Shown: in pieces, positions 51,925 to 61,961 of the stretch
Position numbering within the stretch: position 1 is the stretch's first letter
How the letters are laid out: each line of letters begins with the position of its first letter
Assembly (NCBI RefSeq): GCF_037893015.1
Contig: NC_133658.1
Coordinates: forward strand, 742,274,877 to 742,338,876
DNA: 64,000 nt
From: Macrotis lagotis
Taxonomy: Eukaryota
Direction of reading: 5' to 3'
Program-made: the position numbers and the translations under genes
The notes under the pieces: generated by a model
Seen by the model: only the letters and a program-made list of their open reading frames with translations
The model's database searches: none
Told to the model about the DNA's origin: nothing

Positions 51925-52450
51925 CTGAGTGAGATGAGCAGAACCAGAAGAACACTGTACACCCTAACAGAAACATGGGGGTGATGGTCAACCTTGAAGG
52001 ACTCGCTCATTCCATCAGTGCAACAATCAGGGACAATTTGGGCTGTCTGCAGTGGAGAATACCATCTGTATCCAGAGAAAGAGCCATGGAATTTGAACAA
52101 ATTTCAAGGACAATTACCTTTAATTTAGGGCGAAAAAACTGCTATCTTATTGTCTAATCTTGCTATCTCTCATACTTTATGCTTCTTCCTTAAGGATATG
52201 GTTTCTCTCTTATTACACTTCAATGTACGACATGGAAACAATGTAACAACTGGCAAACTGCCTCCTGTGTGGGGCGGCTGGGTGGCGCAGGGACAGAGCA
52301 CCGGCCCTGTTGTCAGCGAGTGCCTGGGTTCAAATCCGATCTCAGAAACTTCGTAATGACCTAGCTGTGTGGCCTTGGGCAAGCCACTTAACCCTATTTC
52401 CCTTGCAAAAATTGGGGGGACGATTTGTAAAACTCAAAATAAATAAGAGG
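51925..52450 (+). mobile_element. LINE-1 3' end whose tail contains an embedded MIR-like SINE (52270-52445), ending in an A-rich tail.
   Basis: 51925-52265 is collinear with 44740-45120 of the full L1. It is followed by a SINE body (ggctgggtggcgcagggacagagcaccggccctg...) and then 'ttgtaaaactcaaaataaataag', as at 45150-45180. Confidence 0.55.
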
Positions 52451-53110
52451 GGGAAAAAAAGATGAACCATCCCAGGGCTCCTCCAACTTCAAAACTGAAC
52501 CCCGAGGACATTTCCACGTCACCACACGGCCTCCGAACGCCTCCCTTCCCCGCTCCTCAATATGCTGCCCCCCTGGAGTCAAGTAAAGCGAGCGTCCTAC
52601 CGCGGCGGCGCTGGGAGGCCGGGAGACCTTGTGGGCAGCAGATGGGGCGCTGAGCAGCCAGGGCAGAGCCGGCGGCGGGGCGGGGGGCGGGGGGCGGCGG
52701 GGCTCCCCTGGTTCCGAGGCCTAGACCGCTCTCCAGAACAAGGGAAAACAACTGGAACCCGGAAGGCCAGGGCCCGAGGCGGGCCAGGCTCTCCGGCCTC
52801 TCCCCGGAATCTGGGTCCGGCCCGGCTGGAGACCGGGAAGGGGCGGGAGCGCCCCGGCCCCACCCCCGTCCCCGCCCGTGCCCGCCTGGCCCGACGGGCA
52901 CCCGGAGCGTTGATTCTCCCGACAGATGGCCTCTCCTGCCCGATCCAAGCGCTCGGGTACAGGCGGGCGGAGACCCGAGCCAGGGGCACTGAAAACGGGC
53001 ATAATAAATAACAATAGCCAGGAGGAGCGTGAAGACTGGGCAGGTAGAAGAGGCTGGTTGGAGGGCTCCAGACACCAGAGGGTTTCATATTTGATCTTGG
53101 GAAGGGTGGA
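52440..53110. promoter_or_regulatory. CpG island (very GC-rich, with multiple GGGGCGGGG Sp1-type boxes) abutting the ERV 3' LTR.
   Basis: Dense CpG with repeated gggcgggg motifs. All six frames show long overlapping ORFs typical of GC-rich non-coding sequence. Confidence 0.5.
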
Positions 53111-53210
53111 CATGGCCAGACTTGTGATTTAGGAAGGGCACTTCGGTAGCTGGGTGGAGGAAGGACCAACCAGGGGACCGCAGCAACCATCCAAGTATGA
53201 GATGATGTGG

Positions 53211-53287
53211 TGTGCGGGTACTGAGACCCTGACCCAAAGCAAAGAGTTAAGATTTAATTCGGTTCTTGCAAGAAGCAGGGCAGTTCC

Positions 53288-53355
<68 letters not shown>

Positions 53356-53638
53356 AGGAAAAGCCAAATTACAGAAGCTGAAGCAGGGTTAAAAAACCCC
53401 ACAAAACCCACACCCCCCCTTCCCCTCTTTTTTTCCACTGACCCTTACAACAATTGGTCAAAAAGAAGGGGGAGGGGGTTTGCCTGTCTGTCTTTGTTTA
53501 CACCTTATATGGTTCGGGTGACATAATTTTTCTAGCTGGAGATCCGGGTTCCCACTGATTCTTGAGAAATAGAAACTGAGACCTATGGCTCAGACCATTT
53601 TAGCACTGTTTCTGGAAAGTCAGCATTTTTGCCCCTCA
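53211..53638 (-). repeat. ERV 3' LTR (for the minus-strand provirus). Contains a (GA)n expansion absent from the other LTR.
   Basis: ~85-90% identical direct repeat of 58987-59412. On the minus strand it reads TG...CA. A purine-rich PPT-like tract (aataagaggagggattg) sits immediately upstream, at 53639-53660 on the minus strand. Confidence 0.75.
53285..53355. repeat. (GA)n microsatellite inside the ERV 3' LTR.
   Basis: gagagagaga x~35. The homologous position in the 5' LTR reads ctctctgagaaagagagc. Confidence 0.95.
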
Positions 53639-53649
53639 CAATCCCTCCT

Positions 53650-59412: not shown

Positions 59413-59828
59413 GAGGGGCAATGACAGAGGAAGGAAGAGAGCATTAAGGAGAGATGTTAGGAACATATAAACATAGAAGACAGGAGACTGAGGAGTTGAA
59501 GATGACACCCAGGAGGGTGAAACTGGTGACTGGATGGTCATATAGAGAAGTTAGGAAGAGAGATACTCTCTATAGGAAGAGGGGAAGTTTGGAGGAAATA
59601 TGAGTTTAGTTTTGACTACGTTGAGTTGTCCAATTCAAAATATCCAGTGGGTTCTTGGAAATGTGAGAGTGGAGGCCAGGAGAGAGGTTAAGGCTGGCCA
59701 AAACTGAGCATCATCTACATAGTGATGACAGTTGAAATCAAGGGCTCTGATGTGAGATAACCTAAGAACTGGGGGGGGGGGGGGGGGCTGGGGCTAACTT
59801 CACCTACCTGTCAGATAATTGGGAGAGG

Positions 59829-59859
<31 letters not shown>

Positions 59860-60610
59860 CTACCCCTTGGAAAATCTTAGAAGGCTGCCCATCCCTTTCT
59901 GAATGAAGCCCATTCTTCAACCAAACGGAGAAGGGCCCTCCGCAAAACAGCCACCAGCAAGAAAAGCGCCACTCAAACTGGCAAATAAAGCAAAAGCTTA
60001 AGCAAAAACATCACCAATAAAAACTCAAAACCCAATTTAGAGGGCAAGCTCCTTGAAGGTAAGGACTATCTTTTTGTATACACTGCTCTGTCCATTGTTG
60101 ACTTGCTTTTTTTATCGCGGACTCCCGCGATATGGGCCCTATTACCCAGGACAGGTCTCTTGTTTGGGCCTGTTCGCCAATCTCTAAAATGGGGAGAGTG
60201 CCTGTCATGCTCTTTTGGGGCTCTAATGAGATGACATATATGGACGGTGCTTCGGGGGCGTTAAAGCATTGTAGAAACGTCCTTTCGCTCCAGGAGGGCC
60301 AGGCCTTGCTTGACGGCTTCAATCCGGGCCTCGAGACCCGGATCTCGGGGTTAGCGCCTTTCAAGCCTTCTGGATCGCGTTTCGGGGGTTTAGAATCGGC
60401 GGTTGCTAAAGGGAAATTGCTGCTAGAAAAGTTTGTTTCTGGAAACCGTCGTCATTCAGGAAAAGTAAAGGGGCCGCAAACCCCAAGGCCAGCCTCCGCC
60501 CGCCCGCACCCGCCTCCCCAACGCCCGCCTCCTTTCCCGCCTCCCTTTTCCGCACCAGCGGAAGAAGCTCCGAGACTCAGTCAATGACCGGTAACGTCCG
60601 TCGCAGGAGT

Positions 60611-60632
60611 GTCTTCTGGGAAATGTAGTTCG
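60611..60632 (-). promoter_or_regulatory. ZNF143/Staf-binding-site-like motif (minus strand reads cgAACTACATTTCCCAGAAGAC).
   Basis: Matches the ACTACAnnTCCCAGnA extended SBS consensus. Confidence 0.5.
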
Positions 60633-60680
60633 TAACCCCGCCCGCGGCGCCCTGCGCCCGGGACGTAGCAGACACGGGTG

Positions 60681-60707
60681 GACTACATTTCCCAGATGCC
60701 TCGGGTG
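60681..60707 (+). promoter_or_regulatory. ZNF143/Staf-binding-site-like motif (gACTACATTTCCCAGATGCCTCGGG).
   Basis: Matches the ACTACAnnTCCCAGnA consensus. It is inverted relative to the site ~50 bp upstream. Confidence 0.5.
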
Positions 60708-61961
60708 GGGTCCCCCGGAGGGCGGGGCCCCGGCGAGGGTGGAGGCGGGGCTTGGGCAGAGGCGGCGGCTCATTTGTAAATGGAGAGGGAGGCGCCGGCG
60801 GTGGCGGCGACCGCGGTCCGTCTGGGAAGGTGGCCTGAGGGGCCAGAGCGGTACCTGGGCTGGATTCGCAGGTGGGGACCCGGGTCAGTTCTGAGACCCT
60901 CGAGGCTGGGGATAAACAGCTCTGTCCCCTGGGGTCGGAGCCCCGGCTCAGCGGGAGGCCGGGGCTGGGGTGGGGGAGACCCGCGGCGTCCTCTGCGCTG
61001 AGGCCCCGGCTGCCCGTGCTGGGGTGAGGGGCTTGCCCTCCTTTGGGGGCTCACTTTCTGCGCTTTCACGCCAGCCAGTGGTCGCGGAGCCGTTGTGATC
61101 GCTGTCAAGGATTTCGAATCCTTGGCTTAGGGAGAAAAAAGGAAAGTCATCCTTTTCAAACCACAAAGTTAACTTTTCTGCGCCCGGTAGACTCTGAAGA
61201 TGTGATGTTGGCAGCAGATTGTGAGATCGGTGACGGCAAAATGATTGGCTTAATTTTTTTTAAAGGTTGCTTCCCATCCCCAGGTGTGTTGGGGTTTTCA
61301 TGCCAACCCCTTTTTTTTGGGGGGGGGTGATGATGGGTATCATCTGTAAATTTGTTTACACTTCCCTTTAATATCAGTTTGATACATTCCCGCATCAAAG
61401 TAATGCCAGAGTAGACTTTTGCTCCATGCTCCCTCCCTCCTAGTAGACAACCTATACTAATGAAACAAATTACTTAAACATAATTACGTGAAGTAATGGA
61501 CTTTTTAGGATTAAAGCTGGAAGTACATTTCTAGAACAAAACAGGAGGAAAATCACATCTTGCTATATCAGCATATAAAAAAGAAATACAAGGTAATTTC
61601 CCCTAGGTGTAATAAGGATCAGGAAAAGCTTCACACAGGAGAAGGCGGCAAAGAGAGAAACAGTTTCATGCTCTGGAACTTTTGTCAATCTAGTAATGGG
61701 TTCTGTTTTTAAAAGTCACAAAATAATTTTGTAATTTGTGTCTCAGCCTGACTTTTATTGCTTTGAAATTTTGTTTTCAAGTGGTCATTCAAAAGCCATT
61801 TTAAGGTTTACTTTAAATGAAAAATCGTTATCATTGTTCTGGTTGGATGCTTTGATTACATATTAAAAATCAATAATACATAGTAAAGGCTAATTTTTTC
61901 GTGTGTGGTGGTAAAAAGATGAAGGTTTTAACACAGTGAATATTGGTGGTACAGCTCCACA

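Follow-up and report, generated by a model that had tools for sequence, protein, structure and literature searches.

We examined the 5' flank of PARP4 in the bilby Macrotis lagotis within a stretch of 64,000 nucleotides (NCBI RefSeq assembly GCF_037893015.1, contig NC_133658.1, positions 742,274,877 to 742,338,876 of the forward strand; hereafter the window, numbered from its first letter), and found two CpG islands upstream of the gene, a decayed endogenous retrovirus (ERV) between them, and an outward-facing pair of predicted ZNF143/THAP11 sites in the island farther from PARP4. We give a somewhat better than even chance to a model in which the islands are two separate promoters, the ERV lies in the spacer between them and the distal island works as a divergent promoter. 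What is shown directly is how the sequence is laid out, that the gene is PARP4 and that PARP4 requires a further exon upstream of the coding ones.

PARP4 was identified along two routes. A tblastn search with a human PARP4 query gave 13 collinear minus-strand exon matches, the first covering residues 597-639 (3976-3848) and the last residues 1-42 (31857-31732). Joined open reading frames (ORFs) from the left of the window also retrieved PARP4 in a PDB search, and joined window translations matched the solved PARP4 residues 3-639 (PDB chain 11jf_P) with E=2e-226, so the identification does not rely on the tblastn query. By these matches, the window carries the 5' half of PARP4 (vault PARP). Its features, and a retrocopy that bears on the choice of promoter, are as follows.

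31726-31858, minus strand: PARP4 ATG exon, preceded by the acceptor ttttttttcag/ with the ATG (31851-31849) 7 nt on.
3848-28007, minus strand: further PARP4 coding exons, about a dozen, covering human residues ~45-639.
35967-38556 (within 35953-38570), minus strand: BAG3 processed retrocopy, with a perfect 14-bp target-site duplication, AATAAA and an A-run.

The strong acceptor ahead of the ATG exon implies a non-coding exon and a promoter upstream, at higher coordinates, where three CpG islands occur in the window. One of them, at 38.1-38.6 kb, is part of the BAG3 retrocopy and was ruled out as the PARP4 promoter, which leaves the two islands considered here.

52391-53100, no strand: proximal CpG island, GC 0.64, observed/expected CpG ratio (o/e) 0.71, dense core ~52450-52990.
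60101-61240, no strand: distal CpG island, o/e ~0.8, TATA-less.
59413-60100, no strand: CpG-poor spacer from the ERV to the distal island, with G-run and (TA)n simple repeats.
53211-59412, minus strand, 6202 bp: decayed class I (gamma-like) ERV with paired long terminal repeats (LTRs), primer binding site, purine tract and pol domains.

An earlier note on this DNA had placed CpG islands at 52.44-53.11 and 60.38-61.11 kb with a 6.2-kb ERV between them, and all three were recovered. The window overall is CpG-poor (GC 0.38, o/e 0.17), and both islands pass the length (>200 bp), GC (>=0.5) and o/e (>=0.6) criteria for a CpG island, the subrange 60380-61110 of the distal one having GC 0.67 and o/e 0.81. 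Before the ERV the islands were ~1.8 kb apart centre to centre and 0.9-1.1 kb edge to edge, so that the ~1.7 kb given previously stands as a centre-to-centre distance and not as the width of the gap. That gap (52991-53210 plus 59413-60100) amounts to ~900 bp with 8 CpGs and GC 0.45, its right-hand part including a G-run plus (TA)n at 59778-59860. The proximal island contains SP1-type GC boxes at 52677-52697, 52841, 52872 and 52965 and an ETS core at 52760, with a sign change in GC skew near 52600 and a plus-strand AATAAA at 53003 that no donor precedes; a search for a ZNF143 site in this island found none. GC boxes in the distal island lie at 60496, 60500, 60638 (-) and 60720 (+), with an ETS core at 60559. 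We read the islands as two separate promoters and not a single split one, because the ERV sits in a CpG-depleted spacer and the islands differ in motifs, and the former proposal of one broad promoter region divided by the provirus is not borne out. The distal island occurs once in the window and no sequence similarity was found between it and the proximal island, which rules out repeat-borne motifs or duplicate islands.

Two predicted sites define the centre of the distal island.

60605-60631, minus strand: predicted SBS2-type ZNF143/THAP11 site, GA-ACTACAT-TTCCCAGAAGACACTCCT.
60680-60706, plus strand: predicted SBS2-type ZNF143/THAP11 site, GG-ACTACAT-TTCCCAGATGCCTCGGGT.

They point outward, 71 bp apart start to start, and share the motif ACTACATTTCCCAG. 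Both 19-mers quoted in the earlier note are exact, at 60611-60629 (minus) and 60682-60700 (plus); the number of 19-mer matches expected by chance in the window is ~0.02, and none of 100 shuffles held at least two. Even for the looser core ACTACANNTCCCR the 64 kb contain just three copies, the third exact copy (ACTACAAATCCCA) lying at 12929-12917 on the minus strand, within a PARP4 intron and outside any CpG island. The Staf-binding site (SBS) is defined as an 18-bp site with CCCR at positions 3-6, a conserved C at position 12 and RRACTACAN upstream (PMC3082894); the SBS2 class, whose definition also includes RRACTACAN, is bound by ZNF143 and THAP11 in a mutually exclusive manner and has RNA polymerase II peaks on both sides (PMC3627581). 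Each of our sites has TTCCCA over the CCCR positions, the C at position 12 (TTCCCAGAAGAC, TTCCCAGATGCC) and RRACTACAN directly 5' (GAACTACAT, GGACTACAT). When the sites were compared by eye, without a matrix, with the consensus, which reads GAATGCAYYGCG over positions 7-18, the minus-strand site matched at ~13-14 and the plus-strand site at ~11 of 18 positions. Their description as perfect extended sites is accurate for RRACTACAN, TTCCCAG, CCCR at 3-6 and C12, and overstated for the 3' halves, which fit only in part.

Several properties of the distal island point to divergent initiation. It lacks a TATA box and its base composition is mirrored across 60460-60860: GC skew is -0.46 and -0.32 at 60460-60609, about 0 over the motifs and between +0.29 and +0.38 at 60660-60859. 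A mirrored composition of this kind is described for bidirectional promoters, and the flip at the motif pair fits divergent initiation. ZNF143 motifs lie a median of 38 bp from the start site with a bias to the strand of the gene (10.1101/2024.03.08.583987), and the same distance applied here predicts starts near 60.73 kb on the plus strand and 60.58 kb on the minus strand. ZNF143 sites are moreover enriched in bidirectional promoters and sufficient for bidirectional activity (PMC3082894). A minus-strand gene whose 5' end faces the element is present, namely PARP4, and the plus strand downstream offers three donors before its first poly(A) signal at +775 nt. The suggestion that this island is a divergent promoter thus gains support, since PARP4 faces it, the skew flips and each motif points to its own predicted start. 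Bidirectional (head-to-head) promoters in the strict sense have start sites <1 kb apart. A PARP4 start in the proximal island would exceed that distance, although the distal island would still fire divergently. Rfam, run over the whole window at the gathering threshold and in a sensitive mode over 59.4-62 kb, and a tRNA scan found nothing credible in the way of a small nuclear RNA-type gene, a tRNA-Sec gene or any other tRNA or Rfam gene that the ZNF143 sites might serve.

A metagenome scan for inverted SBS2 pairs returned 10 contigs, 0 of them orthologous to this locus. Four of these (L001, L004 and L008 from sample Ga0126362, L010 from Ga0065711) are GC-rich and promoter-like, with two copies of ACTACANNTCCCA facing outward at a distance of 40-70 bp. 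Their sequence resembles vertebrate host DNA, and they suggest that the paired outward arrangement recurs.

The proximal island is the likelier main promoter of PARP4, being the closer full island. A further ground is that the ERV has the same orientation as PARP4: since full-length ERVs so oriented are disfavoured within genes, a PARP4 start to its left is favoured. Candidate minus-strand donors follow both islands.

The provirus itself has a recognizable layout.

53211-53638, minus strand: 3' LTR, direct repeat of ~430 bp with TG...CA ends.
58987-59412, minus strand: 5' LTR, direct repeat of ~430 bp with TG...CA ends.
58964-58982, minus strand: primer binding site TGGGGGGCTCGTTCGGGAT, four bases inside the 5' LTR.
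54708-54848, no strand: marsupial tRNA-derived short interspersed element (SINE) within the ERV, sharing 87% identity with the copy at 51559-51699 and lying inverted to the one at 52318-52410.

We take the primer binding site TGGGGGGCTCGTTCGGGAT to be of the tRNA-Pro type, as in murine leukaemia virus (MLV)-like viruses. A purine tract adjoins the 3' LTR on its inner side, and Pfam domains of pol follow on the minus strand in retroviral order (RNase H 8e-13, the integrase zinc-binding domain H2C2 2.4e-7 and the integrase core rve 1.5e-9), spread over three frames; the MLV integrase C-terminal domain is matched weakly (0.0047, below the Pfam cut-off) and no reverse transcriptase domain was detected in the ERV with Pfam. 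The flanking 4-mers, GTGG and GAGG, are 3/4 identical. Divergence between the LTRs (Kimura two-parameter distance 0.158) would put the insertion at tens of millions of years ago at commonly assumed mammalian neutral rates, and the SINE nested in the element is a further sign of age. Only one weak 58-bp match was found in the search for an older repeat spanning the insertion site. A long (GA)n tract occupies 53281-53350 of the 3' LTR and is absent from the 5' LTR.

On this basis we propose that two CpG-island promoters once stood ~1.8 kb apart centre to centre, separated by a CpG-depleted spacer into which a minus-strand gamma-like provirus of 6.2 kb, now old, would have entered and then decayed. 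The distal island would be a TATA-less promoter of the ZNF143/THAP11-HCFC1 type, at which factors on the motif pair would create a nucleosome-free region, with transcription by RNA polymerase II beginning ~40 bp outside either motif. The plus-strand start (~60.72-60.77 kb) would yield a short first exon ending at 60871 and belonging to the head-to-head neighbour of PARP4, and the minus-strand start (~60.55-60.6 kb) would yield either upstream antisense RNA or an alternative PARP4 first exon.

Two exon candidates for this neighbour were found on the plus strand.

60730-60871, plus strand: candidate first exon with predicted start, ATG at 60780 and donor CAG/GTGGGG (last exon base 60871).
62999-63180, plus strand: speculative second exon with acceptor ttcttctatag/, strong-Kozak ATG at 63068 (MASMTKEF...) and donor AGG/GTAAAA.

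The ATG and donor reported previously are both there, with the junction shifted from 60873/60874 so that the GT falls at 60872-60873. The donor scores 8.7 bits and is followed by no poly(A) signal for 775 nt; the ATG has T at -3 and G at +4. Within the exon the ORF covers 92 nt and ends in phase 2, the final R of its peptide straddling the junction, and it stops early when spliced to either candidate downstream acceptor. The homology search that had been proposed for this peptide (MEREAP...) was run, and no relative was found in a word-indexed search of 5.8 billion proteins or in an exhaustive one of 1.84 billion representatives, the exhaustive HMMER search giving 0 hits with a query that, at 31 residues, is too short to say much about distant relatives. 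Protein searches for the MEREAP peptide together with the MASMTKEF exon likewise gave no candidates, and 4928 residues of joined ORFs (46.3-52.7 kb minus, 52.4-53.2 kb plus, 59.4-60.66 kb minus and 60.6-64 kb plus) gave nothing at E<=0.01. The candidate exon is in itself plausible; given the early stop and the lack of homologues it is probably best read as untranslated or as bearing an upstream ORF.

As to which gene this exon would open, the order CENPJ-PARP4-MPHOSPH8 is listed for goat and chicken in population-genetic papers, and therefore one of CENPJ and MPHOSPH8 faces the 5' end of PARP4. In the literature on PARP4, CENPJ and MPHOSPH8 we found gene order only, and neither orientation nor ZNF143 targeting. 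We consider CENPJ the probable partner and MPHOSPH8 an unlikely one. The human CENPJ ATG presumably lies in exon 2. No exon coding for the MPP8 chromodomain was found in 60.6-64 kb, which, provided that the first exon of MPHOSPH8 has its human structure, speaks against that gene, and tblastn with queries representing human MPP8 and CENPJ gave no significant match. The earlier idea of the MEREAP ORF as a coding first exon whose gene is unidentified is not supported in that form, the gene being probably CENPJ or MPHOSPH8.

Some observations tell against the model as we have drawn it. Its start sites, and with them factor occupancy and the identity of the neighbour, are inferred. The choice of CENPJ depends on gene orientations assumed from mouse and human. 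Neither candidate plus-strand exon matches any protein, even though the proteomes of the bilby and other marsupials are in the database, as the match of the BAG3 retrocopy to bilby BAG3 makes clear. Likeness to the MPP8 N-terminus (6/13 residues; anchored p ~0.005, local p ~0.1) is not significant in shuffle tests, nor is likeness to the CENPJ N-terminus (p ~0.11). The argument from ERV orientation is weakened by the BAG3 retrocopy, itself an insertion in sense within PARP4 intron 1, and CpGs in the spacer could have eroded after the insertion through methylation spreading from the ERV.

Among the alternatives, the one to which we attach a real if minor chance takes the distal island as a shared bidirectional promoter, with PARP4 exon 1 on its minus side less than ~200 bp from the start of the neighbour, the ERV inside PARP4 intron 1 and the proximal island intronic, alternative or orphan. 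The outward motifs, the mirrored GC skew and the published enrichment and sufficiency of ZNF143 sites all agree with such an arrangement, as do minus-strand donors at 60556, 60510 and 59808 (the last of 10.0 bits) and the lack of an early minus-strand poly(A) signal. It would however make the ERV a sense provirus in intron 1, with an LTR poly(A) signal (ATTAAA, 59063) ~1.5 kb from the start, and it leaves a second full CpG island nearer the PARP4 coding exons. We give little credence to the single broad promoter split by the provirus, with MEREAPAVAATAV... as coding first exon of a protein-coding gene yet to be identified. In its favour, the predicted start would be followed by the ATG at 60780 as first AUG, the donor is good and the peptide has a weak anchored likeness to human MPP8, but the spacer is CpG-depleted, the islands are unlike in motif content, the peptide has no homologue in either protein collection, the ORF leaves the donor in phase 2 and stops with both candidate acceptors, and the ATG has T at -3.

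Less credible again is an orphan island or enhancer whose motifs bind factors and drive only unstable divergent RNAs, with no plus-strand gene. In its favour, the 3.1 kb downstream show no detectable coding exon; against it, only 3 kb of the putative gene falls within the window, conserved gene order predicts a gene with its 5' end facing PARP4, and the downstream sequence, rich in donors and poor in poly(A) signals, is typical of productive elongation. In a bolder reading, the provirus pushed apart a once compact PARP4-neighbour promoter pair in the bandicoot/bilby lineage, uncoupled their regulation and now feeds transcription from its 3' LTR into PARP4. That LTR is in sense and lies ~100-500 bp upstream of the proximal island, and PARP4 is reported to evolve fast in host-virus conflict (PMC4038475); we nevertheless hold this reading to be very improbable.

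Other insertions populate the same region. The BAG3 retrocopy is young, lies in sense inside PARP4 intron 1 and retains a poly(A) remnant, with an open frame of ~520 codons that shares ~96% identity with residues 62-581 of bilby BAG3. Together with the marsupial tRNA-type SINEs, this identity places the genome among bilby/bandicoot-type marsupials. The 5'-most 430 nt of the copy, rich in CpG, do not correspond to the canonical exon 1, and the WW domain is missing; the source BAG3 mRNA probably used an alternative first exon, and changes at several residues invariant between human and bilby BAG3 suggest relaxed constraint on the copy. An L1-type long interspersed element fragment at 39207-44829 on the plus strand, also in intron 1 and antisense to PARP4, contains a coiled-coil ORF1-like ORF and a reverse transcriptase domain (RVT_1, 1e-19). 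Copies of the marsupial tRNA-derived SINE lie at 52262-52420, 51559-51699, 54708-54848, ~62000-62100 and ~62590-62720, one of them adjoining the left edge of the proximal island.

On the whole the promoter region is ordinary: everything seen in it belongs to known kinds, and its significance beyond annotation is slight. The analysis supplies the context of the PARP4 5' flank and predicted places for the untranslated first exon of PARP4 and for the start of its neighbour. It also offers a clean marsupial example of an outward-facing ZNF143/THAP11 pair at a GC-skew switch and mildly illustrates, through an old ERV tolerated between two promoters, that spacers poor in CpG can take up large insertions.

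Compared with known systems, the provirus resembles gammaretrovirus-like class I ERVs with a tRNA-Pro primer binding site, such as MLV-related proviruses, in its LTR-primer binding site(Pro)-pol-env-purine tract-LTR layout, its weakly matched MLV-type integrase C-terminal domain and a putative 4-bp flanking repeat. It differs from them in being only 6.2 kb long and heavily decayed, with gag and reverse transcriptase largely lost, pol spread over three frames, and SINE and simple-repeat insertions. The distal sites, which combine ACTACANNTCCCA with an 18-bp Staf site, are like the SBS2 or THAP11-HCFC1 (Ronin) 'M4' motif ACTAYRNNNCCCR (Ngondo-Mbongo et al. 2013, PMC3627581), from which the 3' half of each departs and relative to which the plus-strand site reads as one base missing (TTCCCAGA-TGC). 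Head-to-head pairs with SBS, such as TMEM186-PMM2 and PARP2-RPPH1, have starts <1 kb apart (PMC3082894). Our locus is like them in having a CpG island with ZNF143 sites and a gene on each strand, that on the plus strand being predicted, and unlike them if PARP4 starts proximally, in which case the starts are ~8 kb apart now and were ~1.9 kb apart before the ERV, making these neighbouring promoters and not a strict bidirectional promoter. The human BUB1B promoter has two Staf sites, each with RRACTACAN, and such a fragment drives expression in both directions in reporter assays (Anno et al. 2011, PMC3082894). The predicted pair in the distal island is like it in placing two ACTACA-extended ZNF143 sites close together in a TATA-less CpG-island promoter.

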